From a virus (lineage: Duplodnaviria; Heunggongvirae; Uroviricota; Caudoviricetes), in the IMG/VR virus record IMGVR_UViG_2925891887_000006, positions 1 through 51,857 of that record: 51,857 bases of DNA. The stretch is one strand, 5' to 3'. Positions 1-50,849 of this stretch are shown piece after piece (the first letter of the stretch is position 1; each line of letters starts with the position of its first letter). The notes beneath the pieces were generated by a model. That model worked only from the letters and a program-made list of their open reading frames with translations, was not told the DNA's origin and did no database searches. The position numbers and the translations under genes are program-made.

Positions 1-1206
1 TTACTTAGCGCATATTATTTTTTCTGCTAGAAAGCTAACTAAAGGAATATAGAAACTAACTAATTCTTCTGATTCAGTTAGAGGGATGTGACAATCCTCA
101 CGATTGTATTTGTCTGATGAGTGTACAAGTGCGTTTCTTATATGTTTCAGTACATGGGCTGTATTAGGAATCATATGCTCATTATTCTTAATATTTATGG
201 ATAAATTCTCGCCAAATATTTTTCTTGCTTTTGTGTAATGTTTCTCACCAATACTTTCTTCAAAATTTTCAATGAACTGCTTCAATTCATCCGGTTCAAT
301 ATATTTTTTAAGTACTCTAATCAACATGTCTTTTTCATCGGATTTATCATTATGTTTTTTGACAGTGTTTATTATTGACTCGATATCTGCTAATGATCCG
401 CTAAAATTTGTTGATTGTATGTTAGATCTTAGTTTAGCTTGTAACTCTTCTTCCGAAACACTTAGGAAGTTATATTCTAAAACATGATAATATGATAGGA
501 ATGATTGGCTTGGGAACTGGCTACTAACGGCAACTTTATAATAATTAACTAGATTTATATCATAGCTAGCAAAAGGAATATTGAGTTCAACTTCATCTTC
601 AGAAGTATATGCTATATTTAAAGAGCGGCGTTGTTTATATAGTTCCCAAGCTTGGCCGTAATCAACTGCTAGCTTGAATAAACAGCTATCGAAACATTTT
701 AATGCATCATCTAGCATTTTTTGCTGTTCGATTTTTCTCTTAAGATTATATTTTATTGTTATTGGAGTCCAAACAATAGTGTGGAAATAGACATATCCTA
801 AACGAACTCTATTAATCAGCCTTCTTTTTACAATTTTATCAATGAAGTTTTTGTAGTCTTCAGATTTAAAATGGCTAAGAGAAAATTCTTTGGTTGCTCT
901 TGATAGTTGTACTGTCTTTGATGAATTAGATTTGAATTCAAATGAAGGTGTTTCAAAAATATTTTGGTTTAATCGCTGAACAAAAACCTCAACTGTTCGA
1001 TAGCCAATCAATGTCCTCTTTTCAAGATCATATCGATATTGTCGGGATTTTGCAAAGTTAGATATTGCCTCATCATATCCTTCGTTGAATCTTACTTCCA
1101 CATCCTTGCCATCGATTTGTAAATATAATTTATCTTCTTGAACCTTACATTGAATGCCATTTGATTCGAAAACCTCTTTTACAAATTCAAAATTCATTTT
1201 TTTCAT
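1..1206 (-). CDS. Hypothetical 401-aa protein with C-terminal HEPN-like Rx4H motif (HIRNALVHS); candidate abortive-infection/defence cargo of the satellite
   Basis: Complete ORF with stop at 1..3; visibly AT-rich versus neighbours; lies distal to psu/delta where P4-like elements carry defence cargo. Confidence 0.6.
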   Translation of the reverse strand: MKKMNFEFVKEVFESNGIQCKVQEDKLYLQIDGKDVEVRFNEGYDEAISNFAKSRQYRYDLEKRTLIGYRTVEVFVQRLNQNIFETPSFEFKSNSSKTVQLSRATKEFSLSHFKSEDYKNFIDKIVKRRLINRVRLGYVYFHTIVWTPITIKYNLKRKIEQQKMLDDALKCFDSCLFKLAVDYGQAWELYKQRRSLNIAYTSEDEVELNIPFASYDINLVNYYKVAVSSQFPSQSFLSYYHVLEYNFLSVSEEELQAKLRSNIQSTNFSGSLADIESIINTVKKHNDKSDEKDMLIRVLKKYIEPDELKQFIENFEESIGEKHYTKARKIFGENLSINIKNNEHMIPNTAHVLKHIRNALVHSSDKYNREDCHIPLTESEELVSFYIPLVSFLAEKIICAK

Positions 1207-1908
1207 CCTTTTTCAATACACCGAAATGCAATACTTAATCTATCTAAACCATAACCTTTATAGAAGAATAAATATGAACATTGTTAACGGTCGAGGGAAA
1301 ATGCTCTAGTTCCTGCCTTCATGCTTCTCAAAGTGTCTTAGGTGTAAATAGCTGATATCTTGTGTGAAATGTTATCTTGTTGTAAATGGATTTGCAATGT
1401 TAACTCATGTAAAAAATAGATCATTGTCATAAAAAATGAAGTGTCTGCAAGTTAATAGGTCAGAACGCATGTAATCATAAACGGAACAAAAAACATAGCA
1501 GAAATAATGTCCGAGTTATCTACTGACATAACTAAAAAAATAATCTAAGTCTCGTCATTTCAGATAGCTTAGGAGGCTAATATCCATACCCGAATCATAG
1601 GATTTCCGTTGATAGGTAGCATATAAGAATGAGAGAAAATCAGCTGAGAGCGCATTAACCGATAGTGGTGGACTTATCCAGTTTGATTGATACAACGAAA
1701 CTGATAATGATAGTCGGTTAAGGTAGTTTAGCGCACAGCCCCGCACGCCTGCCCGCTTCGCTTAACAGACTGGTTTTCATGCATGCCATAAATCGTCTCA
1801 GTTACCACCATACAAAGGTTTTCGCCTCAAAAAAGGTGCATAAGACTCATGCGTTTTCATGCGCCATAGACATGCACTCATGCGCTCTCAGGCCAGCCAG
1901 GGAAAAGG

Positions 1909-1937
1909 TGTTAAAAATCCCGGCACTCGACCGGGAT
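1909..1937 (-). terminator. Intrinsic terminator downstream of ogr/delta
   Basis: Stem ATCCCGG/CCGGGAT with 7-nt loop at 1917..1937, followed on the minus strand by a T-run; about 20 nt after the delta stop. Confidence 0.5.
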
Positions 1938-1957
1938 TACGTGGGCGTTTTTTCTAA

Positions 1958-2239
1958 TCAGACAGGAATCTGCTGACGGCTTGACAGTTTTGACGCGGAG
2001 CCATAGCGATTGAGCGTTTGCTGTTGTTTTACCGGGGTTTGTGATTTGTCTGGTTCCTGTTCATTGCGCCGGGGTTTCATGATTATCTTATCCACACTCT
2101 CCAGTGCCGTAAATGTGCAGGAACATTCCAGATTCTGGCACTGATACCACGAGCGTTTAACTGACGGAGCTTCATAGGCTGCTGTTCTGGCGTGTGCAAC
2201 TGTACCGCATTCCGGACATTTAAGTGCCATTAATATCAC
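1958..2239 (-). CDS. Ogr/Delta-family zinc-finger late transcription activator
   Basis: CPECG...AHART...YQCQNLECSCTF matches the P2 Ogr / P4 Delta Cys4 pattern. Confidence 0.85.
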   Translation of the reverse strand: MILMALKCPECGTVAHARTAAYEAPSVKRSWYQCQNLECSCTFTALESVDKIIMKPRRNEQEPDKSQTPVKQQQTLNRYGSASKLSSRQQIPV

Positions 2240-2787
2240 TCCTGTATATCGTTAATGTCATTCAGGCGTTGCTGAAAACGCAGGTGTTGTGCCGGGGTGT
2301 AAGAGCCCTGGCAATCACGAATCATCCCGGGGTCAGGCATCAAACCGGATTCATCTAGGATCTCACGATAATCCCCGACAATTTCAGGCGGTGTTATTGC
2401 CAGCTGGCGAACCAGAGCACTGCGTAATATACGAAACGCAACGTCAACCCCTCCGCGTCCCTTCAGGAACGGAGCCAGTGCAGATGTCAGGGCTGCCCCA
2501 TTCGCCTGCATAAAATTGCTGAGAGCAGCTTCTGTGCAGGCCTCCATCAATAAATGCTGCGAGTAAATGCATTCGCGCGCAGCACAGTTAATTTGCCATT
2601 TCAGCACATCCAGACGTTCCCGCAGTAATTCGAGCTGTCGGGCATAATCTGCTGGTTTTTCTGTGGCAGTGAGGAGAGATGCTATCTGTTGTTCAACGGC
2701 TTTTCGGCTCTCACTATGTCCGGCCCACAGAATACGGGCATTCCGAAAACTGGTAAGTGCCTGGTCAGGTGTGCCTCGGGCCGTCAT
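2236..2787 (-). CDS. psu: Psu-like polarity suppression protein
   Basis: 183 aa; resembles P4 Psu as recalled (ALTSALAP, TPAQ segments); start overlaps sid stop. Confidence 0.6.
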   Translation of the reverse strand: MTARGTPDQALTSFRNARILWAGHSESRKAVEQQIASLLTATEKPADYARQLELLRERLDVLKWQINCAARECIYSQHLLMEACTEAALSNFMQANGAALTSALAPFLKGRGGVDVAFRILRSALVRQLAITPPEIVGDYREILDESGLMPDPGMIRDCQGSYTPAQHLRFQQRLNDINDIQE

Positions 2788-3527
2788 ACTGCTTTCTCCT
2801 TCTCAGCAAGTTCCTGACGAACCTTTATTTTATGCATAGCTGCCGGAGAGAGTTGATTACTGAAATCCAGACGCGCCGCATAATCCGGGGCAACTCCCGC
2901 CAGTTTAAACACCGGGTCCTGTTCAGGCATCGCATCGTTAGCCAGAGCCGGTCTGGTGATATGTTTATGAATAAAGTCTTTCAGCACTGTGTCCGGGTCA
3001 TTAACTGAATTCACCACACCCACAACGGCACTGGCTTCCCGGCCCATTGTGGATTTAAGCAGGCTCAGCGTCTGAATAAGCGCTTTTCCATGCGACTGCA
3101 TAAAATCTTCCCAGATTTGTTTTGCGCGAATATCTACAAGGATGTTATGCGCGTGGATATACTTTCCGGCTAATTCCGCAGCTTTCTGCGGCAAAAGTGC
3201 ATTTTCGCTTTCCTGAGCCGCCAGCAGCTCATCAAAATCCTCAAGCGTTTCTCGTCCCAGCGCAATTTCCGTGCGCAGTTTTTTCATTTCCTTTGAGACC
3301 ACGCCCTGACTTTCACGAAACAGCGTGCGCCACTCCTCATTCAGTGTGTTCGTCGTGGCTTCCATTTCAGCGCGACGCTGGCGGATTGTCGCAATATTAT
3401 CCGCTGCCGCTTTCTGCTGACGACGTGCTTCAAGCCATGCGTTTCTGGCTGTGTTCATGGTTTCCAGTGCCCGCTGCGTTACAGCCGGAAAAGTGGAAAG
3501 GTTGTTATTCACTGCGGTGTTGTTCAT
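2784..3527 (-). CDS. sid: Sid-like capsid size-determination (external scaffold) protein
   Basis: 247 aa, coiled-coil-like; EEWRTLFRESQGVVS resembles P4 Sid as recalled; position upstream of psu. Confidence 0.5.
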   Translation of the reverse strand: MNNTAVNNNLSTFPAVTQRALETMNTARNAWLEARRQQKAAADNIATIRQRRAEMEATTNTLNEEWRTLFRESQGVVSKEMKKLRTEIALGRETLEDFDELLAAQESENALLPQKAAELAGKYIHAHNILVDIRAKQIWEDFMQSHGKALIQTLSLLKSTMGREASAVVGVVNSVNDPDTVLKDFIHKHITRPALANDAMPEQDPVFKLAGVAPDYAARLDFSNQLSPAAMHKIKVRQELAEKEKAV

Positions 3528-3706
3528 GACTTCTCCTGTCGGGGTGGTTAGTTACGTCAATTGTGTCGTGGCTGACACAAGCACACTATCGGTGCTCAGT
3601 GTGTGGTGGCTGGCACAACGGGCGCTTGCGGTTATTCCGACGTGGCTATGAAAGCCAGCCAGATAAAAATGCCCACTGTTTCAGTCTGCTTTATGTCCCT
3701 GATGCG

Positions 3707-3894
3707 GTGGAACAGGTGAAACATGTGTTACACCTTTGTTTTATAAAGCATTTATATACACTGCACCGGTGGAACATCGCGGGTAACAAGGTGGAACAGC
3801 GGATTGGCTGGCGTTACATCTGTTCCACCTCACTATTTCAGAAGGTGGAACAGGTTCAGCCCTGTAAAATACGGTTGTTCCACCTGTTTCACCT
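3707..3894. repeat. Alpha-binding octamer iteron cluster (crr/ori-like): GGTGGAACA / TGTTCCACC, at least 6 copies in both orientations
   Basis: Copies at 3707, 3768, 3790, 3844 (plus) and 3821, 3877, 3886 (minus, last one TGTTTCACC variant), immediately downstream of the alpha gene. Confidence 0.65.
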
Positions 3895-3927
3895 GTTACC
3901 CTTAATAAATAAGACTCACGCAAAGTC

Positions 3928-6600
3928 TTAACCCGGCACCTCGCTGTTGAAGACATAGAGCCTGCGGGGATTCATCTCTGGCGGGCGAATGGTTGTCTGG
4001 AGTTTGCCATCAGTGGAGGGCAGCAGGTATCCACGATCTGCGCACAGACGCGCCACCTTGCGCGGGTCAAATCCCCTGCAGATTTCTTTCCAGCCGGACG
4101 GCATGACATAGAACGTAGTGACAGCTTCCGTGCCCTGCGCGGTACTGCCTTTCTCCACCCTGCGCCAGCCCACCATATTGCCGGGGCGGTTGCGCTCGTC
4201 ATACCAGTCTGCAAAGCGGCTGTACTGATTCGCGGTAAAGAAACTGCGAACCTGCTCCAGTGCGGCGATATCTTCCTGATTGGCGGTGTGCCCGCGATCT
4301 TTCAGCCATGCGTTCAGGCAGACGCGGGTTGCCCGCAGTGCTTCACCCTCAGGCCAGCCGGTGATACCCAGACGGGTTGCCAGTTCACCTGCCATCGCCA
4401 CCAGTGCAAAGCGGTTCACAGCCCGTCCCACCTGATTGCCTGCATCTTTCGGAGTCAGGGCGGCAGCATATTCCTTCATCAGCGATTTTGCCTGTGCCGT
4501 TAGTCCGTTAAGATCAGCGGTCAGTGCTTTCAGCCACTCCCGGAACGGCGAACCGTAGTAGCAGGACGTGGCCCATTCAAGATGCTCTGCCAGAGCCTTG
4601 CCGCTGTCGAAGCCGTGCAGCTCCTCAAAAACGCCAAACTTCCCGGAATCGCTGGGGATCTGGATCATCCTGACTTCCATCCCGGCAAAAGTACGCTCAC
4701 CGGCCTTTGCCGCATGTTCGGTCAGAGACAATTCGCCAGTTGAAAAGAACAACAGGCGCCACTGCTTACGGGTACGCAGCTCACCGTCCGTACCGGCACG
4801 GCCCTTGCCCTGACCGTTTGCCAGCATGTAGGCGATATTGCCTGCCTCGCGTCCGTCAACTTCCCGGATCTCATCAAGCATCATGGCGGCATCGTTGCGG
4901 CGGCTGGCGCATCCCTCCAGCGCGTTGCCGGTGGCCCGCCATGTCTGCCAGTAGTCAGGCCCGCCGCAGACGGAGGTTGCCGCTTTCATGGTGGTAGTCT
5001 TACCGTCTGTCGATTCCCCTTTGAGGTGGTAGCCGCCGCCGTCCATACCCACCAGCCGTAACAGTGGTGCAGCAAAGGCCAGGCTGACAGCAAATGCCAC
5101 GCGGGAGTTGCCGGTACAGTAGCGGGATACATGCTCCCGCCATTCCTCTGTTGTGCCCGACACGCGGAAATCACGCCCCTGCACGGAAGTGGTCTGGAGA
5201 ATGACACCCTCTGCACCTTCACCGCTGACCTCATCCTGCAGGACGTAAACCTGACCATGCCAGCCAGTACGACTGACGCAGGTCACGCGGCGTTCCGGTT
5301 TACACAGTGAGATATATTCCATCAGGCGTGCGCGTGCCTCACCGGTGGTGCTGATATAAGACAGCCCGTTAACCAGCAGTACCCGGCGCAGTTCCTCACC
5401 ACTGCCGCTCAGCATTTCCATCGGCATCGCCCAGCGGCGACACTCACCCCACGTATCTTCCCATTCCAGCAGTCGTCCGAAGTTACCGCCATCGGCATCG
5501 CAGGTGATTGCCGTCACACGCAGCGGGCTGCATATTTTGACGTTCTGGATCTCCGTCTCACCGTTGCGCTGTACCTGCTTTTCATACCAGAGATATTCCT
5601 GGGTAAGACGGAACCCGTGCGGCAGTTGCGTGCGGCCTTCCCCGCACAGTACCAGACCGTTGCGAAAGGCTTCACGGGCACGGGTAATACCATGCTCCCG
5701 ATGAAAGTCATTCCAGTCAGCCTTAATCTCTCCTGGTGGCAGCGTCATCCAGCCGCCAACAGATTTTGCCGCCCGTTCAGCAAAGGCTCTGCCGGGATTC
5801 TCCCCCCCGTCCTGAAAATCGTTATCACCGGCGATGATAATTTTTACCTCAGGCCAGCGTGCCCGCAGCGACTGCGCCACATTGGGCAGATTGCCCGCAG
5901 ATATGGCAGCCACTACGCATCCGGCAGTGAGCTGGCTTACCGTCAGCGCCGTAGCGTAACCTTCGGTAATCACCACCTGTACCGGTGGTTCAGACGGTAA
6001 CGGGCTGAGCGACACAAACGCGCCTTTCATCGTGCTGCCGGGCAGTATGCTTTTTTCACCCGTCGGGGCGATAAGCTGTGCACCGGTCACGGCTCCGGTA
6101 TTGGTCGTGAGTGGTAACAGCAGGGAACCGGCAGGAAAATCCTTACCGCTGATATGCTGCACGCTTCCGGTCAGAGAGGCCGGGTATCCGGCGAACCCTT
6201 TTCCTGTCAGATAGGCGCTTTCTCCCGTGTGGCTCTCTTTCATCAGCGCCGCCACGGTAAGACCCATGTCGCGTTTAGGGGCTTTTTGTCTGGCAGGCTT
6301 AACAGGCAGTTCCTGCACATCCGGCACATTAAGCATCTGCGCCACCTCCTGCGCAGCCTTTCTGACGCTGTAACCGGTTACGAGCTTAACCAGATCCAGA
6401 CCGTCACCATTGCCACACTGGCTGCAGATCCACGTCCCGCGCCCGTCAAGGTCATCAAGGCGAAAACGATCCTTGCCCCCACATTTCGGGCAGGGACCGT
6501 GCCTGCCGTTTTCAGGTACATCAATACGCAGCATCTGCAGAATAACGGGCCATTTCCCCCGCGCGGCGGCTGAAATCTGCGTAACCGTCTGTATTGTCAT
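3928..6600 (-). CDS. P4 alpha-type primase/helicase (N-terminal zinc ribbon, primase, P-loop helicase)
   Basis: 890 aa; CPKCGG...CSQCG zinc-binding motif; GESTDGKTT Walker A. Confidence 0.9.
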   Translation of the reverse strand: MTIQTVTQISAAARGKWPVILQMLRIDVPENGRHGPCPKCGGKDRFRLDDLDGRGTWICSQCGNGDGLDLVKLVTGYSVRKAAQEVAQMLNVPDVQELPVKPARQKAPKRDMGLTVAALMKESHTGESAYLTGKGFAGYPASLTGSVQHISGKDFPAGSLLLPLTTNTGAVTGAQLIAPTGEKSILPGSTMKGAFVSLSPLPSEPPVQVVITEGYATALTVSQLTAGCVVAAISAGNLPNVAQSLRARWPEVKIIIAGDNDFQDGGENPGRAFAERAAKSVGGWMTLPPGEIKADWNDFHREHGITRAREAFRNGLVLCGEGRTQLPHGFRLTQEYLWYEKQVQRNGETEIQNVKICSPLRVTAITCDADGGNFGRLLEWEDTWGECRRWAMPMEMLSGSGEELRRVLLVNGLSYISTTGEARARLMEYISLCKPERRVTCVSRTGWHGQVYVLQDEVSGEGAEGVILQTTSVQGRDFRVSGTTEEWREHVSRYCTGNSRVAFAVSLAFAAPLLRLVGMDGGGYHLKGESTDGKTTTMKAATSVCGGPDYWQTWRATGNALEGCASRRNDAAMMLDEIREVDGREAGNIAYMLANGQGKGRAGTDGELRTRKQWRLLFFSTGELSLTEHAAKAGERTFAGMEVRMIQIPSDSGKFGVFEELHGFDSGKALAEHLEWATSCYYGSPFREWLKALTADLNGLTAQAKSLMKEYAAALTPKDAGNQVGRAVNRFALVAMAGELATRLGITGWPEGEALRATRVCLNAWLKDRGHTANQEDIAALEQVRSFFTANQYSRFADWYDERNRPGNMVGWRRVEKGSTAQGTEAVTTFYVMPSGWKEICRGFDPRKVARLCADRGYLLPSTDGKLQTTIRPPEMNPRRLYVFNSEVPG

Positions 6601-6980
6601 ACTTCCCCCTGATACAACGTCACACCGGTACTGCAGCAGACATCAAAGGCCGCCGGAAGCGTGCGGTACATCTCCGCCATTACTTCACAACCGCGCGCGG
6701 TCAGTACCGGCGGCGCGGTCAGCAGTGACGGCTCCAGCATGTCAGTCAGCAGTGCCAGCGCGGCAGCGGCGCCCTGTGCTTCGCCGTACTCGTTAATCAG
6801 TGCGCACTCGATATGCAGCGCAATGGCCATTTCAATACGCTCCACCGTCAGGCTGTGCGGACCATACTGATCATTGCCAGTTTCGTTCAGCATTTTCTGC
6901 CGCCATGCTGAAGCAATAGCCCACCGGTAAAGCGCGGTGGTCATTTCTGCCGGGAAAATGGAAACCTGCGGCTGGTTCAT
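6597..6980 (-). CDS. Hypothetical protein, satellite early operon
   Basis: 127-aa ORF translationally coupled to alpha (4-nt overlap). Confidence 0.5.
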   Translation of the reverse strand: MNQPQVSIFPAEMTTALYRWAIASAWRQKMLNETGNDQYGPHSLTVERIEMAIALHIECALINEYGEAQGAAAALALLTDMLEPSLLTAPPVLTARGCEVMAEMYRTLPAAFDVCCSTGVTLYQGEV

Positions 6981-7261
6981 CTGGCACCTCCTTCAATCAG
7001 TGCGCAGCTGTGTGCAATATCCGTCAAATCTGCCCGCAGGTACTCCATCAGCGCGGCGACACCAGGCGCAAAGCCTGCGTCCAGTGCTCCGGCCTGAGAC
7101 GGGTATTCAGAAAAGAGAAGCTGGAGCATGTCGCAGGCATTTCTTGCGCGGGTCAGCTTTCCGAAACCGTCCTCTGACAACCCATAGGCAAAAGCACCGG
7201 TATTGTGTTTTTCAGGCAAAGTCTGGCCCTGAGCACCGTTGTGCCCGTTTGAAATATTCAT
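6977..7261 (-). CDS. Hypothetical protein, satellite early operon (epsilon position)
   Basis: 94-aa ORF overlapping the downstream gene start. Confidence 0.5.
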   Translation of the reverse strand: MNISNGHNGAQGQTLPEKHNTGAFAYGLSEDGFGKLTRARNACDMLQLLFSEYPSQAGALDAGFAPGVAALMEYLRADLTDIAHSCALIEGGAR

Positions 7262-7292
7262 TGTGGATTACTCCGTTTTCAGCGGTGTTTTG

Positions 7293-7652
7293 TCAGAGAA
7301 ACTTTGAATAGTGACCGTCATCAGGCTCAGCAGAACACCATATGCTACGCTCCCGCCAGCGGATAAATAGCACAGACGGATGCAGTGTCAGCGGGCCGGA
7401 ACCACTACCGCCTGCAGGAGCTGGTGCAGGCTTAAAGAGCGGTACATCAAACAGGCGCGTATATCGCTGTTCAAACCATGCCAGAGGGCAGGAAGAAAGC
7501 TGGTTGTCGCTGTCATGACGTATCAGCACTTCACAGCTGAATTCAGGATTAACCAGCGCCACAGAGGGCGAGGCTTCTATTAATCGGATAATCGTGACCG
7601 TCCAGCCACGTTCATGCTGCCAGCGTTCGCCGGGATGCGGATAATTACGCAT
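7293..7652 (-). CDS. Hypothetical protein, satellite early operon
   Basis: ORF-track frame; start placed at internal Met (MRNYPHPGERW) to limit overlap. Confidence 0.4.
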   Translation of the reverse strand: MRNYPHPGERWQHERGWTVTIIRLIEASPSVALVNPEFSCEVLIRHDSDNQLSSCPLAWFEQRYTRLFDVPLFKPAPAPAGGSGSGPLTLHPSVLFIRWRERSIWCSAEPDDGHYSKFL

Positions 7653-7821
7653 GTTCACCTCCGCAGGGAATGCGCCCGGCAAAGCTCAGTACATAGTCCG
7701 GGGCAAGTCTGCGCCGCGCTGATCGCTCGTTATCTGCGGTGATCCTTAACATTACCGGACGGGCATTACGTTGACTGCGGTTGATCGCCGCAAATAACCA
7801 GGTACACTTCTGTTTAGCCAT
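7645..7821 (-). CDS. Small basic protein, Icd/Kil-like (possible host cell-division inhibitor)
   Basis: 58 aa from internal Met MAKQKCTWLF; first gene of the leftward satellite operon. Confidence 0.45.
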   Translation of the reverse strand: MAKQKCTWLFAAINRSQRNARPVMLRITADNERSARRRLAPDYVLSFAGRIPCGGEHA

Positions 7822-7937
7822 CTTCGTTACCTCATATAACGTGCTGGTCAGACGCCTCGGTGGTGCTGCAAACACTCCGGGGCGTTGCTATTTTGTTTTT
7901 CTGTGTGTAATGTGTCATTACACATAAATACATTACA

Positions 7938-8132
7938 ATGGGTGTAATTGACGTGTCAACACACAAAAATGAAAGACGTGGGAATCCGCCATTCCAGTTC
8001 CGACTTGACCCTGAACTGCGTGAACTGATGGAACAAGCACAACAGCAGGATGGCGATGAATCGCTAGCGGCTTGGATCAAGCGCATTCTACGCAAAGAGT
8101 TACAAAGCCGAGGTTTAGAACCAAAGAATTGA
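7938..8132 (+). CDS. Ribbon-helix-helix (Arc/CopG-like) DNA-binding protein, candidate satellite repressor
   Basis: 64 aa; FQFRLDPELRELMEQA...AWIKRILRKEL fits a beta-strand plus two helices; divergent from the early operon, start embedded in palindromes. Confidence 0.5.
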   Translation: MGVIDVSTHKNERRGNPPFQFRLDPELRELMEQAQQQDGDESLAAWIKRILRKELQSRGLEPKN

Positions 8133-8181
8133 TTAATACGTTGGGGAGGCTTTTTTCTCCCCAGCTTTGTTAATATTGTCA

Positions 8182-8397
8182 TTACACTACTTCCTCCAAT
8201 CCTGCTGATTGAGCTTTAACCCACTGCCTAATTTCTTGTGCATCGTAAACAGATACCCGTTTTGAAATGCGTATAGATTTGGGAAATTCAGGATTGTTCT
8301 TTTCCCAGCGCCAGAGAGTAACCGTACTTATTTGCAAAAAGTCAGCAGTAGCTCGTGGGCGGGCATGTCCAGTGATAGGATAAGTTTTTAATGTCAT
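8182..8397 (-). CDS. alpA: AlpA/Vis-family transcriptional regulator
   Basis: 71 aa with HTH; typical partner of P4-type integrases. Confidence 0.8.
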   Translation of the reverse strand: MTLKTYPITGHARPRATADFLQISTVTLWRWEKNNPEFPKSIRISKRVSVYDAQEIRQWVKAQSAGLEEVV

Positions 8398-8499
8398 GAA
8401 ATTACCTGCCGTGTTATGTAATGAACACGGCAGATACTATGGGGATATCAAAATGCTGTGAAGGTAGTGTAATCAACTCTACCTGTAGATTGTTTCAGT

Positions 8500-9381
8500 C
8501 TACCCCTTTTGTTTTAATCCCGCATGATTAACCGCTAATCGTAATTTTCTTAAGATTTCTTGTTCATTAGTGATAAATATTGGAGGTAGCTCTCCTAAAT
8601 GTTTAATTATGGCGTTAGTCCACTTTTCAGGACTTATCTCTTTTCTTTCACCACGACATTCGCTTGGGTATTTTGCTAATATATATATGGCTGCATTTAA
8701 TAACCCCCCCCTATTTTTTGCATGATGCTCAGCAGTGTTATTTAATCGCTTGGGGATTTTAGGTTCAGATGAAATTCTTTTCGTAAGTAAACTTGGCATA
8801 GGAATTCCAGTTTTTACTGATTTCCATATTAACTCTAAATCTCTTCGCATGATAAGAAGATCTTCAAATGGAATATCAATGACCTTATTTCCTTCATATG
8901 AGGCCGTTGCCATCAAAACATTATCTCGTATTTTTACCGGTTTAAGCCTGAATTCATAATCTGGATCTATAGCTAATCCATTTTTTATGTCACTTATCAT
9001 ATCATCGGCGTACCAAATACCACAGGCAAATCCTATAATTTGAAGCCCATTTTCAAAATGTTCAAAGGAGTCATCTTTAAGGTCATACCATATTGTTGAA
9101 AATTCCATCTCTAGTGATTGATTAGTTAATACGGGATGAATTAAGTCAATTTCCATTTTCTGATTTTTATAGAGGAAATTAACATTAAATCTAACTGCAA
9201 GTCCATCCGCCTTGAATGCGATATTAAAAGCGCCTATTTCGTATAGGTGTAATAAATCATCAATCTCGCATTCTAATAGTCTTGAAGCGCGTTCAAATGA
9301 ACAATATTCTAATGGTGGTATTTTTTTGTCAATCCATAGATTTCCTAAGAATATAGTTTCATTCTCTTTTGAATGCTGCAT
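8500..9381 (-). CDS. Hypothetical AT-rich 293-aa protein between int and alpA (accessory cargo)
   Basis: Long ORF, low GC versus flanking int and alpA, no recognisable motif. Confidence 0.6.
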   Translation of the reverse strand: MQHSKENETIFLGNLWIDKKIPPLEYCSFERASRLLECEIDDLLHLYEIGAFNIAFKADGLAVRFNVNFLYKNQKMEIDLIHPVLTNQSLEMEFSTIWYDLKDDSFEHFENGLQIIGFACGIWYADDMISDIKNGLAIDPDYEFRLKPVKIRDNVLMATASYEGNKVIDIPFEDLLIMRRDLELIWKSVKTGIPMPSLLTKRISSEPKIPKRLNNTAEHHAKNRGGLLNAAIYILAKYPSECRGERKEISPEKWTNAIIKHLGELPPIFITNEQEILRKLRLAVNHAGLKQKG

Positions 9382-9411
9382 TATGACCTCTGTTTTAAAT
9401 TATAAGAAAAT

Positions 9412-10746
9412 TTAATTGATAATGTTAATACCTGATAAGTCATAAGGAGCATGAAATTCGTCCTTATTTAGTTCCAGATAATTAGACCACCATTGCATCA
9501 TTCTGCGGCGTTCCTGCATGTGCTGCGCAAGATGCACATATGCTGCCCGCACTTCGTTTCTTTCTTGGTGACTCATCTGCCGTTCAACTGCATCGCGTGA
9601 CCAGAGTCCTGATTCGGTCAGTGCAGAGCAGGCCATCGCCCTGAACCCATGCAAGCAAACATCACTTTGAGTGTCGTAACCCATCGTTCGCAGTGCTTTA
9701 TTAACTGTGTTTTCGCTCATCGGTTTATATGGGTTGCTGTCACCGGGGAAAACCAGCAGATATTCACCACTGATTTTCCTTATATCCTCCAGTACCCCGA
9801 TAGCCTGACTAGATAGCGGGACATAATGAGCAGCCCCCATCTTTGCACCCCGCTCTGAGAATTTAACCCCTGCGATCTCTTCACGTTGTCCTGGTATCGT
9901 CCATAGCCCATTTTCAATGTCGATCTCCTCCCATCTGGCATGTCGTAGTTCGCTGGATCGCACAAAAGTGTGCAGGGAAAATAGAACTGCTAGGCGAGTC
10001 AATGGTCTTCCCGTGTAACTTCTCGTTTTCGCTAACAGTTCAGGTAAACGTTCGAGAGGTAGTGCGGGGCGATGTCGTACTTTGGGGGTCGTAATTGCAC
10101 CTTTTAGATCGTGGGCAGGGTTGTAATCGACAATTCCACGTTGCACGGCATAACGGAAGATGCTCGTCATAGTGGTTTTTACCCGGCTCGTTGTGGCACC
10201 AATTCCTTTCTCAGTCATCTCAACCAGCATCGGCATCAAGTCACGGGTTTTGAGCGTATCGATAGGCTTTGAACCGATGGCAGGAAAGAGGTGGTTTTCC
10301 ATTTCTCGGAGAATTTTTTTACGGGTGATCTCTTTCCACTCAGGATGCCCTATCGTTCTACTATGCCACTCTCTGGCAACACTCTCGAACGTGGGGGAAA
10401 TTGGGTCTTCCTTTTTGGGTTTCTTTGCTTCGCGAGGATCACGACCATCGGCTAGTAGTTGCCTGGCTTCATCACGCCGTTTCCGCGCTGTTGCAAGTGA
10501 GACATCTGGGTAGACCCCTAATGCCAATGTCACTTGTTTTCCATCAAAACGATAATTCATACGCCAGTATTTTCCACCAGTCTTTCGTACCAGTAGATAC
10601 AAACTCCCTCCATCGGTAAGTTTGTAATCATTGGTCTTCGGCTTGGCGTTTTCTATCTGTTTGGGGGAAAGCACATTAATGGCCATATCTGTACTCATTT
10701 TGGTAGATTGATGGTATCTGCATATCGAACTGGGGAATACCATCAC
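9412..10746 (-). CDS. int: Tyrosine integrase, P4-type
   Basis: 444-aa ORF (true start may be an internal Met); N-terminal arm-binding-like region and C-terminal catalytic region; adjacent to att core copy. Confidence 0.9.
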   Translation of the reverse strand: MMVFPSSICRYHQSTKMSTDMAINVLSPKQIENAKPKTNDYKLTDGGSLYLLVRKTGGKYWRMNYRFDGKQVTLALGVYPDVSLATARKRRDEARQLLADGRDPREAKKPKKEDPISPTFESVAREWHSRTIGHPEWKEITRKKILREMENHLFPAIGSKPIDTLKTRDLMPMLVEMTEKGIGATTSRVKTTMTSIFRYAVQRGIVDYNPAHDLKGAITTPKVRHRPALPLERLPELLAKTRSYTGRPLTRLAVLFSLHTFVRSSELRHARWEEIDIENGLWTIPGQREEIAGVKFSERGAKMGAAHYVPLSSQAIGVLEDIRKISGEYLLVFPGDSNPYKPMSENTVNKALRTMGYDTQSDVCLHGFRAMACSALTESGLWSRDAVERQMSHQERNEVRAAYVHLAQHMQERRRMMQWWSNYLELNKDEFHAPYDLSGINIIN

Positions 10747-10872
10747 TTATACCATCACGAGGTTGTAATGTCATGAAATTAACTGAAATGAAAATCAGGC
10801 CGATTCGGTGATAACTTACTGTTTTTTTAAGTGGTTATGTAATGAAGTGAAATGTAGAGAAAGGTCTTTAAA

Positions 10873-10885
10873 GTGTCCCCTGCAG
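10873..10885. repeat. att core copy (GTGTCCCCTGCAG) at the satellite/prophage junction
   Basis: 13/13 identical to the 3' end of argW at 50777..50789. Confidence 0.6.
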
Positions 10886-10958
10886 ACATCTACTTGACGC
10901 GGCAGGGGATTGATTGGAATGGTGTTTTTTAGATGTGAAAAATATTTTACCCGCTATT

Positions 10959-11159
10959 TTACCCATTGGCGCGGCTTAAGAGCTTATTTTTGAATTCACA
11001 ATGGTCACGATATAACCATCTTGCTCGACCGTGGATAACTTTGGCTTTAGGCAGGTCGCCGGACTTAATCCGGTCGTAGATGAAGGTTTTACCGAAGCCA
11101 GTATCAGCCATGATGAATTTCAAATCAACCAGGGAATCAGGCTGTAGTTCGTGTTGCAT
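10959..11159 (-). CDS. torI: TorI-type excisionase (Xis)
   Basis: 66 aa; matches E. coli TorI as recalled; sits at the prophage end opposite int. Confidence 0.75.
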   Translation of the reverse strand: MQHELQPDSLVDLKFIMADTGFGKTFIYDRIKSGDLPKAKVIHGRARWLYRDHCEFKNKLLSRANG

Positions 11160-11200
11160 GAGTGCTATCTCCGAATAGGGAATCGAACCTGCAAATCAGG

Positions 11201-11221
11201 CAATAAAAAACCGCCATCAGG
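11201..11221 (-). terminator. Putative intrinsic terminator
   Basis: Short GC hairpin followed by T6 on the minus strand, just after the 54-aa gene. Confidence 0.35.
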
Positions 11222-11386
11222 CGTCTTGGTGTTCTTTCAGTTCTTCAATTCGAATATTGGTTACGTCTGCATGCGCTATCTGCGCCCATATCATCCAGTG
11301 GTTATAGCAGTCGTTGATGTTCTCGGCTTCGATAACTCTGTTGAATGGTTCTCCATTCCATTCACCTGTGACTCGGAAGTGCATTT
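11222..11386 (-). CDS. Small hypothetical phage protein (54 aa, MHFRVTGEWNGEPF...)
   Basis: Hand-translated; below the ORF-track size cutoff; GGAG 9 nt upstream of ATG. Confidence 0.45.
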
Positions 11387-11542
11387 ATCATCTCCATAAA
11401 ACAAAACCCGCCGTAGCGAGTTCAGATAAAAGAAATCCCCGCGAGTGCGAGGATTGTTATTGTCTTTGCTTCGTGCATTTGTCGCACTTTCTGCACCATC
11501 CAGATAGGCACATCCGTCCGCAATTAACACATATAGGCCACA

Positions 11543-11986
11543 TCATTTTTCCTCTTTTGGTTTATGAATCTGAACTGGCAAGTTGTAAGTTTGGCTTACA
11601 GGTTGGTTACTCTGAAGCATGGCGGCGCGGCAGGCGTTCCAGCCATCAACATAATCAAACGTATTGCTATCGTCTGGCTCGATTTCATCTGGCACTATCA
11701 GCACCGGCTGGACGGTGACATTGGCAAAGGCAGCACGCAACCCGGTTTTAATTTCTTCGATTTCATCAGAGCCAAGCGATGAGTCAGAAAGCGCATGGTG
11801 AAATGCGTAAGCCATGTCGTCGTTGATTTCTACAGGCACACTATCAGCCTTGCGGCGCTCCTGTAGCTCGCGCAGAGCCGCTACAACATAATGGCTATTG
11901 TGCTGGTCAGCCCACAGAATGAGCCGAATCAACGTTGCATTTGAAACGTATTCGTCTGTTAGTTTGCTATTGGTAAAAGTGGTCAT
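11543..11986 (-). CDS. Hypothetical early-left protein
   Basis: 147-aa ORF overlapping the upstream HNH stop. Confidence 0.55.
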   Translation of the reverse strand: MTTFTNSKLTDEYVSNATLIRLILWADQHNSHYVVAALRELQERRKADSVPVEINDDMAYAFHHALSDSSLGSDEIEEIKTGLRAAFANVTVQPVLIVPDEIEPDDSNTFDYVDGWNACRAAMLQSNQPVSQTYNLPVQIHKPKEEK

Positions 11987-12348
11987 GCCGTAGCCCCTTC
12001 TTGATATTTTTCAAACCAGAACACAACTGGGTCAGATTTCATTTCAACCAATCCCATACGAACCAGCGCTTTGCCTTTCCCGGACGCAAGGAATTCACGA
12101 CGACCATCACTGATAATTCGCCGATAATCTTCCAGACTACTGCAATGCTTGTGCAGATTGCATGGGTGGCATGCCGGAACCATGTTGGATATATCGTCAC
12201 GTTCCTGGTGAAGCATATTTCCATCAAAACGGATGACCGGTTTTACATGGTCTGCATGCCACTTTTCGCCAAGTTCGCAGCCGCAATAAGCGCAGCGACC
12301 ACCGAACTTCATGCGCAGTTCTGCGCGTTGTTTTTTCGTCAGTGACAT
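11983..12348 (-). CDS. HNH endonuclease
   Basis: CAYCG...HADHVKP...CHPCN motif. Confidence 0.75.
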   Translation of the reverse strand: MSLTKKQRAELRMKFGGRCAYCGCELGEKWHADHVKPVIRFDGNMLHQERDDISNMVPACHPCNLHKHCSSLEDYRRIISDGRREFLASGKGKALVRMGLVEMKSDPVVFWFEKYQEGATA

Positions 12349-50774: not shown

Positions 50775-50849
50775 TGGTGTCCCCTGCAGGAATCGAACCT
50801 GCAATTAGCCCTTAGGAGGGGCTCGTTATATCCATTTAACTAAGAGGAC
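50775..50849 (-). tRNA. argW: tRNA-Arg (anticodon CCU)
   Basis: Minus-strand GTCCTCTTAGTTAAATGGATATAACGAGCCCCTCCTAAGGGCTAATTGCAGGTTCGATTCCTGCAGGGGACACCA; cloverleaf with CCU anticodon and encoded CCA. Confidence 0.92.
50777..50789. repeat. att core within the 3' end of argW (GTGTCCCCTGCAG)
   Basis: Identical 13-mer at 10873..10885. Confidence 0.6.

Follow-up and report, generated by a model that had tools for sequence, protein, structure and literature searches.

A fast-evolving, integrase-contiguous gene of a P4-like satellite as a candidate component of its int-alpA excision switch

What does an AT-rich gene of no recognized family do between the integrase gene and alpA of a P4-like satellite? 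We address this question for ORF293, a 293-aa frame with an ATG start at 8500..9381 on the minus strand of a 51,857-nucleotide stretch of viral DNA (IMG/VR record IMGVR_UViG_2925891887_000006; the window). An earlier note, made from the letters of this DNA alone, had pointed out a low-GC frame of this length between an integrase gene and alpA, and its position, flanks and composition are all confirmed. The GC content of ORF293 is 33.7% (0.337, with a GC3 of 0.252), against 0.476 for int, 0.421 for alpA and 0.589 for the primase gene. The P4-like satellite that carries ORF293 lies at tRNA-Arg, with the tRNA gene itself at 50775-50849 and a 13-nt copy of its 3' end (GTGTCCCCTGCAG, 10873..10885) forming the int-proximal att remnant and the right boundary of the satellite. 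The upstream partner of ORF293 is a P4-type tyrosine integrase gene (int, 9412..10746, minus strand; start at 10686 in RefSeq) whose product has Arm-DNA-bind_3, Phage_int_M and Phage_integrase domains. The downstream partner is alpA (8182..8397, minus strand), which encodes a 71-aa Phage_AlpA protein (PF05930, E 1.6e-7). All three genes are on the same strand: the int stop codon (9412-9414) lies 30 nt from the start of ORF293, and alpA follows 102 nt beyond its end. A GAGG ribosome binding site (9390-9387) is placed 5 nt 5' of the ATG, and a consensus scan predicts a promoter (TTAACA-18 nt-TATAAT, 9399..9428, minus strand, 11/12 consensus matches) that lies within the 3'-terminal part of int and 18 nt ahead of the ATG. 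No terminator was found between int and ORF293.

ORF293 is a genuine gene under purifying selection, beyond a chance ORF. Measured against alleles of 66-92% identity, its dN/dS is 0.09-0.22, and with its frame intact in the window it is not the pseudogene fragment that the earlier note had thought conceivable. An identical or near-identical gene is present in 67 of 5426 complete E. coli genomes, and the exact protein, annotated only as a "hypothetical protein" (WP_001164795.1), is recorded on 915 contigs. In a few strains the gene is disrupted by IS1 insertions or truncation; because such disruptions occur, ORF293 is dispensable for satellite carriage. The gene also diverges steeply, with identity dropping to 24-29% in comparisons that leave int, alpA and primase at 73-98%. 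A low dN/dS combined with such divergence is what would be expected of a specificity determinant.

The family to which ORF293 belongs, here called X, is large and has escaped annotation. An exhaustive profile search returned 532 cluster representatives at E<=1e-3, so that the family, as judged by profile similarity, comprises at least 532 clusters at 50% identity. Sequence profiles from Pfam, PADLOC, PHROGs, NCBIfam and the PDB gave nothing usable for ORF293 and 94 relatives, and PADLOC returned no family for ORF293 at E<=1, in line with the earlier description of an uncharacterized protein without recognizable motifs. The best PDB match, 3k21, aligned in part to a His-tag/TEV linker (HHHHHHSSGRENLYFQG) and is regarded here as spurious, and Pfam did not confirm a "DUF4388" label that UniRef gives to one relative from Xenorhabdus. 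A tblastn search of 50,697 phage records found no relative of ORF293. This bears out the remark in the earlier note that P4 has no such gene, as does the canonical P4-like gene order, in which int is not adjacent to alpA (PMC8628076). [quoted passage not shown]

Within satellites, the family has a fixed place. In every locus examined (>35), X directly follows a tyrosine integrase gene of the Arm-DNA-bind_3 type on its 3' side, at an int-X gap of -4 to +96 nt, and wherever the downstream flank is long enough an alpA-type gene follows 3' on the same strand. The >35 loci offered no other genomic context. The order int-X-alpA occurs in E. coli, Yersinia, Pantoea, Kosakonia, Pectobacterium, Intestinirhabdus, Tatumella and Klebsiella, extends to distant X members of about 20% identity, and is kept across integrases that are ~25% identical and across several primase types. 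We conclude that X occupies this place in P4-like, PICI-like and fis-integrated (PICMI-type) satellites of Gammaproteobacteria, and that ORF293 is the integrase-contiguous gene of a P4-like satellite, a functional and fast-evolving member of the family. A sample of 27 fis-site loci with an integrase, picked by att site instead of by the protein, has X directly after int in 15, with an overlap of 4 or 1 nt in 13 of these 15; overlaps are also found in L029, L041 and L052. The ATGA translational overlap indicates that these genes are expressed in a manner coupled with the recombinase.

Composition says less about this slot than it might appear to. The GC content of the slot gene is below that of int in 20 of 20 measured loci, usually by 10-18 points and whatever the family. 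Low GC is a standing trait of slot occupants and does not in itself signal recent arrival; since every occupant is AT-rich, composition is uninformative on recent acquisition, and low GC beside an integrase should not be read as "recently acquired defense cargo". The earlier note had taken the composition contrast as a hint of cargo such as defense, anti-defense or toxin genes. That suggestion is weakened, though not refuted, by the low GC in all 20 loci, the fixed position, the lack of a PADLOC match and the need for a PICMI counterpart in excision.

The content of the int-alpA interval does vary between satellites, a comparison the earlier note had recommended: it can hold gene Y, DUF6387, a PICMI-type IOLG gene, yfjH or, in EcCICFT073, nothing. 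Sister elements with 98% identical primases have unrelated genes in the slot, and ORF293 is accordingly no universally conserved P4-like gene of known function, the other outcome that would have spoken against the earlier note. EcCICFT073 is helper-inducible with its slot empty. Because of this element and the sisters with unrelated genes, the role of ORF293 is not universal to alpA-type switches. DUF6387, the Y proteins (212-235 aa) and YfjH occupy the int-alpA slot of related satellites or cryptic prophages and, like ORF293, are AT-rich relative to int, with DUF6387 and Y members overlapping int by 1-4 nt. As homologues all three were rejected: neither Y nor DUF6387 is related to ORF293 by hhalign or hmmsearch --max, and YfjH is encoded on the opposite strand and has no HMM match. 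Prophage CP4-57 of E. coli K-12 has the arrangement intA-yfjH-alpA, with a YfjH of 318 aa.

The sole functional datum on genes of this slot comes from the PICMI satellites of Vibrionaceae, where iolg of PICMI115 is essential for excision: once it is deleted, a helper no longer induces excision, and packaging and transduction are lost as well (Barcia-Cruz et al. 2024, PMC10803314). In these satellites int and iolg are constitutive and alpA is induced, and genes of the IOLG/ICG class are placed between these two on their strand; an iolg shares 1, 4 or 13 nt with int, and an icg adjoins it (PMC10803314). By position ORF293 falls within this class. It shares slot and orientation, and many of its relatives share the 4-nt (ATGA) or 1-nt overlap with int; IOLG/ICG proteins resemble X in having no recognizable domain, in a slot that holds mutually unrelated families or none, and in a GC content below that of alpA. 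The likeness does not extend to homology, as comparison of the ORF293 family with the 195-aa PICMI115 IOLG, recovered from loci L286 and L282, gave none (hmmsearch --max E about 0.1; hhalign probability 0.1%). ORF293 also differs from IOLG in its 30-nt distance from int, as in the icg type, and in possibly having its own promoter, and while PICMI are 6-kb elements with a virulent helper phage, ORF293 resides in a P4-like satellite of a temperate helper. Genes of this slot are thus widespread beyond Vibrio, in enterobacterial satellites that include P4-like elements of clinical E. coli.

Structure prediction was confident and divides ORF293 into three: first comes an acidic winged helix resembling those of MerR and excisionases, then a beta domain that is hypervariable, and the C-terminus is helical, basic and conserved. 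The predicted winged helix (codons 21-69; 9175..9321, minus strand) has the beta-alpha-alpha-beta-beta fold of AlpA, Vis, Xis, TorI and MerR and is the best-conserved part of X proteins family-wide. It differs from MerR and excisionase domains in being acidic (median net charge -2), in a second helix devoid of basic residues, in the lack of basic or polar contacts to DNA in that helix and the wing, and in its fusion to ~220 more residues of no recognized fold. Pfam models for HTH_17 (PF12728), Phage_AlpA (PF05930) and MerR (PF00376/PF13411) had no match in ORF293 and 94 relatives, and alignment of the family with AlpA by hhalign was not significant (E 0.017, probability 2.7%). The recognition helix follows the consensus V-[E/D]-D-L-I-H-W, in which Asp42 is 99% conserved. 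Because the domain is acidic, with an essentially invariant Asp and no basic residue in its recognition helix, DNA binding by the winged helix appears doubtful.

The middle domain (codons 70-191; 8809..9174, minus strand) is modeled as beta-rich, with a net charge of about -9, and ends in a conserved helix with a DL.I motif (residues 173-191). In its beta part only G121-x-W123 and P148 are conserved; identity between subfamilies is 7-21%, and alignment A1 holds two alternative architectures. The C-terminal domain (codons 214-293; 8503..8742, minus strand), a predicted four-helix unit, is basic and conserved, with the motif ER.A.NRE.LL.AAI..L...P.EC.G..KEISPEKW...PP..I...L..A. Between elements with just 20-41% identity in Int and AlpA, this domain retains 52-61%. 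No DNA-binding fold was recognized in it, and X proteins are acidic overall (median pI 5.6).

The short interval between ORF293 and alpA contains two tandem palindromes, which are candidate binding sites. O1 (GTAGAC-tgaaacaa-TCTAC; 8485..8503, minus strand) overlaps the ORF293 stop codon (TAG, 8502-8500), and O2 (GTAGAGT-tgatt-ACACTAC; 8464..8482, minus strand) ends its right arm 1 nt before the -35 of a predicted alpA promoter (8434..8462, minus strand; -35 TTCACA at 8462-8457, 17-nt spacer, -10 TAGTAT at 8439-8434). Similar -35/-10-like geometry can be seen by eye in L002, L006, L011 and L013. O1 and O2 are the sole matches to their motif in the window, where chance would give 0.27, and a scan of viral contigs for the O2 pattern mostly returned chance matches. 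Among 19 comparison loci, palindromes of this type are present in 7 of the 9 with a C-terminal domain at least 52% identical to that of ORF293, although in most of these AlpA is 20-31% and Int 27-41% identical; the strict motif is missing in the other 2. The 10 loci with other C-terminal types have none, including L009 and L044, whose AlpA (82-88%) and Int (73-77%) are far closer to those of the window. On these alignments O1/O2 co-vary with the C-terminal domain without alpA or int following, a pattern that is to be read with two confounders, physical adjacency (<60 nt) and shared locus ancestry. It is the half-site sequence, and not pairing alone, that is kept across highly diverged elements. 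The distant X members L055 and L058 both have tandem palindromes, with the same AGGTA/TACCT core.

Other identities for these repeats were considered. As plain intrinsic terminators O1/O2 fit poorly, given a weak RNA fold (z -1.5) and no T-run in the window, and we keep this possibility only within the excision-cofactor alternative discussed below. In L002, L029, L057 and L058 the stop codon precedes an inverted repeat with a T-run behind it, and these could be plain terminators. The activator site of Ogr/Delta at P2 and P4 late promoters, TGT-N12-ACA, is by eye a poor fit to the array. Further downstream, a leader hairpin (core CTGCCGTGTT-N8-AACACGGCAG, 13 bp; 8403..8436, minus strand) pairs the alpA Shine-Dalgarno sequence, with a predicted fold of -19.7 kcal/mol (z -7.0). 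The alpA promoter region is swapped together with ORF293 alleles, and allele breakpoints fall between the array and promoter on one side and this hairpin on the other. The hairpin goes with alpA rather than with ORF293, and is retained alongside alpA in L009 and L044, where the X allele differs. As an ORF293 operator we considered, and rejected, an inverted repeat located at the start codon of alpA, since it is kept with alpA in L009 and L044 despite their different X allele. Rfam found no P4 CI/C4-like or other RNA family in positions 1-12000 at the gathering threshold.

Our leading, though tentative, proposal from these sequence patterns, to which we give a little less than even chances, is that ORF293 is a component of an excision and induction switch between int and alpA and probably binds O1/O2. 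In the resident state, ORF293 would be made with or just after integrase, by read-through or from the putative promoter at 9399-9428. Its basic C-terminal helical domain, as dimers, would then bind O1/O2 between its own stop codon and the alpA -35, as the co-variation suggests, while the acidic winged helix and the hypervariable beta domain could contact Int, AlpA or a helper-phage product, making alpA expression, and hence excision, conditional. The leader hairpin over the alpA ribosome binding site may in addition shield alpA from read-through translation. That such a gene should be required for excision has a precedent, by analogy, in a non-homologous gene of the same slot.

Two further functional accounts must be weighed against this switch, both of them less probable. 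ORF293 could be an excision cofactor only, an accessory directionality or architectural factor that, as has been proposed for PICMI IOLG, partners Int and AlpA within the excisive complex at the att sites, with no part in transcription, in which case O1/O2 would be a weak terminator, an mRNA-end structure or unrelated. We regard this as unlikely but worth retaining: the PICMI precedent comes from a gene with no homology to ORF293, elements with an empty slot excise anyway (EcCICFT073), and a C-terminal domain conserved at 52-61% beside Int at 27-41% and AlpA at 20-31% would be odd if its partners were element-specific. The conservation of the O1/O2 half-sites in sequence, together with their weak fold as RNA, is likewise awkward for this account. 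Somewhat less probable again is accessory cargo: the satellite would have a second variable spot, filled by a stand-alone gene for a toxin, for defense or for anti-defense (e.g., an acidic protein resembling a DNA mimic). Satellites are known to carry defense genes, and another gene of this very element matches DzbB; ORF293 has low GC, an acidic product and its own strong promoter-like site, it diverges fast around a hypervariable central domain, it tolerates IS1 insertions and truncation, and sisters with near-identical primases fill its slot with unrelated genes or leave it empty. Yet defense genes typically occur in varied contexts, whereas X is seen only as int-X-alpA and in no phage genome, and PADLOC, Pfam, NCBIfam and PHROG are all without a match. 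The int-alpA interval is also absent from the described P4 defense hotspots, which are int-psu, sid-alpA and primase-att (PMC8628076). Low GC is common to all occupants, and the excision gene iolg is no exception when set against its alpA; the ATGA overlap with int indicates expression coupled to the recombinase.

The reading of ORF293 as a frame without protein function, either in decay or retained as AT-rich spacer DNA that insulates int from alpA or binds H-NS, is close to refuted, and we consider it highly improbable. It would account for the AT-richness of all slot occupants and for disruption in some strains, but not for a dN/dS of 0.09-0.22, a 293-aa frame kept intact in DNA of 33.7% GC, a confident three-domain structure prediction or the conserved motifs shared by 532 diverged full-length relatives.

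The switch proposal would speak to how helpers turn on alpA in Gram-negative satellites. Gram-negative PICIs are reported to depend on the activator AlpA and not on a repressor; no repressor is known, nor is the route by which a helper switches alpA on (PMC6092414). In a stronger and more speculative version, which we think unlikely as a whole, X proteins would be the regulators, missing until now, by which AlpA-type satellites sense their helper, with the middle domain recognizing a helper protein and the C-terminal domain opening or unblocking the alpA promoter at O1/O2. Were it true, P4-like, PICI-like and PICMI-like satellites would gain a functional counterpart of Gram-positive Stl with an unrelated fold, and the excision need for PICMI iolg-class genes would be explained as well. 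To this question we contribute a confident structural model, the division of the protein into three domains and, in O1/O2, a candidate cis-element that appears to co-vary with one of these domains. The comparison with Stl (Rpr) of SaPIs and other Gram-positive PICIs is one of functional analogy only. Like ORF293, Stl is encoded beside int where the inducible operon begins, and ORF293 may work in a similar way, with a conserved HTH-type N-terminus, a putative sensor region that diverges widely and alleles that differ strongly among otherwise similar elements. The two have no sequence or fold match past a generic winged helix, and while stl is divergent from the operon it represses (PMC6092414), ORF293 is co-directional with alpA.

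Elsewhere in the satellite, the other AT-rich gene (1-1206) matches DzbB of Dazbog in PADLOC (2.2e-9), and this DzbB-like gene is the real hotspot cargo of the element.

The AT-rich reading frame between int and alpA of the P4-like satellite, here ORF293, is a genuine gene. Its extent is as the earlier note gave it (8500..9381, minus strand, 293 aa, ATG start); a GAGG lies 5 nt 5' of the ATG, and 30 nt separate the int stop codon from the start. The product is annotated as 'hypothetical protein' (WP_001164795.1), the exact protein is recorded on 915 contigs with cluster mates in Salmonella and Klebsiella, and the sequence occurs in 67 of 5426 complete E. coli genomes, chromosomal and single-copy in each. 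Its dN/dS is 0.22 against a 92%-identical allele and 0.09 against a 66%-identical one (protein identity). IS1 interrupts ORF293 in E. coli CE0021a and E41 (matches H41 and H53), and in ETEC1716-1739 (H63, H64, H71) a deletion takes alpA and the 3' part of ORF293, leaving a truncated copy. These natural insertions and truncations indicate that ORF293 is dispensable for carriage of the element.

The gene sits in an unusual layout. It is flanked by int (9412-10746, minus), a P4-type tyrosine integrase with Arm-DNA-bind_3, Phage_int_M and Phage_integrase domains, and by alpA (8182-8397, minus, PF05930), beyond which come an Icd-like gene, two small ORFs, a DUF5375 gene, the TOPRIM+DUF927 primase (3928-6600), two Psu-family genes and an Ogr/Delta gene. 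With X for a slot gene of the ORF293 family, the slot being the int-alpA interval, this reads int-X-alpA-icd-...-alpha-psu-psu-delta-hotspot. The canonical P4-like order is int-psu-delta-sid-alpA-epsilon-alpha, with variable int-psu and sid-alpA intervals (De Sousa and Rocha, PMC8628076); an int adjoining the alpA/alpha side was reported as rare (PMC8628076), and a 2026 survey added a third variable region, primase-att (PMC13586616). Neither survey describes an int-alpA hotspot, and the gene order seen here is thus atypical for P4-like elements. The satellite ends in a 13-nt copy of the tRNA-Arg 3' end (10873-10885), and a prophage of about 40 kb (10886-50774), itself carrying a small HTH/excisionase-like gene (10959-11159), separates its int end from the tRNA-Arg(CCU) gene (50775-50849). 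E. coli 5444 has the satellite immediately adjoining the tRNA, with no prophage between; tRNA-Arg(CCU) is a tandem integration site of the two elements. An Rfam scan of 1-12000 detected no C4/CI-type RNA.

ORF293 matches nothing in Pfam, PADLOC, PHROGs, NCBIfam or PDB sequence profiles, and none of 94 relatives has a significant Pfam match. A word-indexed search found only 12 relatives, while an exhaustive HMMER search yielded 532 representatives of clusters with E<=1e-3, 153 of them reaching E<=1e-10; most are 270-330 aa long and matched over near full length. With that many representatives and no known-family match, the family is both large and unnamed; public sources label its members 'hypothetical' throughout, and 50,697 deposited phage genomes hold no relative. 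The only nominally significant PDB sequence match, 3k21 (alignment A2, E 3e-4), is an artefact lying partly on the expression tag (HHHHHHSSGRENLYFQG), which resembles the family's H..ER.A.NRE motif and is worth keeping in mind in profile searches.

An AlphaFold2 model built with the 94-sequence alignment (mean pLDDT 84.6, pTM 0.66) places a beta-alpha-alpha-beta-beta winged helix at residues about 21-69, the best-conserved segment of the family. Its profile relation to AlpA is not significant (hhalign E 0.017, probability 2.7%), the register being correct. The winged helix is acidic (median net charge -2), with a recognition-helix consensus V-[E/D]-D-L-I-H-W and an Asp42 that is 99% conserved, a composition that is unusual for a DNA-contacting helix. 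Residues 70-172 form a hypervariable, strongly acidic beta-rich domain with 7-21% identity between subfamilies, and it takes two or more alternative architectures. Next come a conserved helix and a linker modelled with low confidence, then a basic C-terminal four-helix domain (residues 214-293), which carries the family's strongest motif, ER.A.NRE.LL.AAI..L...P.EC.G..KEISPEKW...PP, and has no match in PDB or BFVD.

The earlier note had read the composition contrast as suggesting separately acquired cargo, such as a defence, anti-defence or toxin gene. The contrast is real (GC 0.337 and GC3 0.252, vs int 0.476, alpA 0.421 and primase 0.589), but it is common to all slot occupants and gives no sign of recent arrival: each of the 20 loci measured has a slot gene lower in GC than its int, as a rule by 10-18 points, be it an ORF293-family member, an unrelated protein (Y) or YfjH, and the pattern recurs at fis-site loci. 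Low GC is thus a standing property of the slot, kept over long divergence under purifying selection. Genomic context also argues against cargo. Every family member with readable flanks is immediately preceded, on its own strand, by an integrase of the Arm-DNA-bind_3 type, and an AlpA-family gene follows wherever the downstream flank is long enough. The members sampled include relatives of close and of intermediate similarity in E. coli, Yersinia, Pantoea, Kosakonia, Pectobacterium, Intestinirhabdus, Tatumella and Klebsiella, and five distant members of about 20% identity. The int->X->alpA order holds across three replication modules (DUF927 primase, D5_N/DUF5906 primase, split Toprim+DUF927), with integrases down to 25% and AlpA down to 20% identical to those of the window. 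Among the loci examined no member was seen outside this arrangement, and a family so invariably placed is not scattered cargo. We consider a cargo or defence role unlikely.

What does vary is the content of the slot, as the comparison of int-alpA intervals proposed in the earlier note brings out: X, Y, DUF6387, yfjH or none. Elements with a primase 97-99% identical to the window's (L027-L053) are mosaic in the int-proximal module. An ORF293-family member fills the slot next to int types >=74% or about 39% identical to that of the window, and a Y of 212-235 aa next to int types of about 46% or 27% identity; in one element the slot is empty. The integrases of this set fall into four or more types (27-98% identity), every type paired with a slot gene and an alpA of its own, so int, slot gene and alpA are exchanged by recombination as one block while the replication module stays constant. 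E. coli K-12 CP4-57 differs in carrying yfjH, unrelated to ORF293 and on the opposite strand, and in the model PICI EcCICFT073 the interval is a gap of just 365 bp.

A precedent exists in Vibrio PICMI satellites, where iolg, a function-unassigned gene between int and alpA that overlaps int by 4 nt, is needed for the satellite to be excised, packaged and transduced upon helper induction. Expression of int and iolg is constitutive, that of alpA is induced by the helper; across PICMIs, iolg or 'int-contiguous' (icg) genes fall into 13 unrelated families, and a few elements lack such a gene (PMC10803314). Using the PICMI att repeat, we drew fis-integrated satellites from IMG/VR (27 loci with an integrase). 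In 15 of these loci the gene right behind int belongs to the ORF293 family, with a 4- or 1-nt overlap in 13, which makes the family a bona fide occupant of the iolg/icg slot. Other int-overlapping genes fill the slot in eight loci, seven of these being of the Pfam DUF6387 family, and the remaining four lack a slot gene or end at a contig edge. The DUF6387 slot genes in L210, L215, L227, L239, L249 and L260 are AT-rich, encode 280-290 aa and overlap int by 4 or 1 nt; the L210 protein matches Pfam DUF6387 at E 6.5e-28 and the others are its close relatives, giving DUF6387 a defined genomic niche. The PICMI115-type IOLG (195 aa), recovered via the AlpA sequence in the PMC10803314 supplement, has no homology to the ORF293 family detectable by sequence comparison, and is thus a positional counterpart rather than a homologue.

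Between ORF293 and alpA lies a candidate cis-element. Two palindromes, O1 (GTAGAC-N8-TCTAC, 8485-8503), which begins at the ORF293 stop codon, and O2 (GTAGAGT-N5-ACACTAC, 8464-8482), are centred about two helical turns apart and are the sole motif matches in the 51.8-kb window (chance expectation 0.27). One base separates O2 from the -35 of a predicted alpA promoter (TTCACA, 8462-8457; -10 TAGTAT, 8439-8434). Relatives with an ORF293-type C-terminal domain have an equal palindrome arrangement with GTA[C/G]AG half-sites (GGTACAGT-N6-ACTGTACC in L011), followed by a similarly positioned -35/-10-like pair. Of nine loci sharing >=52% C-terminal-domain identity with ORF293, seven have such palindromes, even though in most AlpA is just 20-31% and Int just 27-41% identical to the window's; of ten loci with other C-terminal types, including L009 and L044 (AlpA 82-88%, Int 73-77%), none has them. 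O1/O2 lie <60 nt from the C-terminal-domain coding sequence, so linkage contributes to this co-variation, and the loci are mutually non-independent. Loci with other C-terminal types have their own, different palindromes, and the distant members L055 and L058 have tandem ones with a common AGGTA/TACCT core. In the window, the RNA fold of O1-O2 is no better than shuffles (z -1.5); in some relatives a T-run follows the repeat, which could then be a terminator.

The allele breakpoint falls between O1/O2 plus promoter and the alpA leader, where a 13-bp hairpin (8403-8436, -19.7 kcal/mol, z -7.0) is predicted to sequester the Shine-Dalgarno sequence of alpA by base pairing. Leader hairpins are likewise predicted in L009, L013, L002, L041, L057, L060, L282 and L286. 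The window-type hairpin stays with alpA whichever X allele is present, those of other alpA types differ in sequence but share the position, and in PICMI the alpA start codon lies within the 3' arm. None is predicted in EcCICFT073, which has no slot gene, or in CP4-57, where yfjH is on the opposite strand. Because the predicted -10 adjoins the 5' arm, transcripts from this promoter should lack part of that arm, and int/ORF293 read-through transcripts would bear the closed hairpin. These few cases suggest that the hairpin may insulate alpA translation from upstream read-through.

The best-supported interpretation is that ORF293, like iolg, is part of an int-alpA switch module and not hotspot cargo. 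From synteny, architecture and co-variation we tentatively propose a specific mechanism, which falls somewhat short of probable: the C-terminal domain would bind the O1/O2 palindromes at the promoter of alpA, Int, AlpA or a helper product would be the partner contacted by the acidic winged helix and variable domain, and alpA expression and excision would thereby be gated. A pure excision-cofactor role is rather unlikely, and functions outside those considered take up the remainder. Whatever its role, it is not universal, since there are helper-inducible elements without a slot gene and natural disruptions are tolerated. Int-overlapping or int-contiguous satellite genes as a kind were already described in 2024 in Vibrio; what is added here is the family itself, large, unnamed and built of three defined domains, its occurrence in Enterobacterales satellites of the P4-like and PICI-like kinds, and the palindromes associated with it. 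The main value of these findings is that they make the switch-on of alpA-type satellites experimentally approachable.

Three further observations concern neighboring or related elements. A 22.9-kb circular, non-mobilizable K. pneumoniae 'plasmid' (NZ_CP033626.1, L287) encodes int, a 317-aa ORF293-family member, an AlpA-like HTH protein, an antirepressor, Icd-like and PerC proteins and a tape-measure protein, and resembles a satellite in its excised form that was submitted as a plasmid. The satellite's other AT-rich gene (1-1206, minus, 401 aa), with which the window begins, lies after delta in the canonical P4 hotspot; PADLOC gives a match to the Dazbog defence protein DzbB (E 2.2e-9, residues 207-397), and Pfam a weak one to MauJ. 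The YlcI/YnfO-Icd-like segment adjoining alpA (7800-8130) has 78-86% identical copies on E. coli plasmids (33 plasmid places) and in many chromosomal elements.
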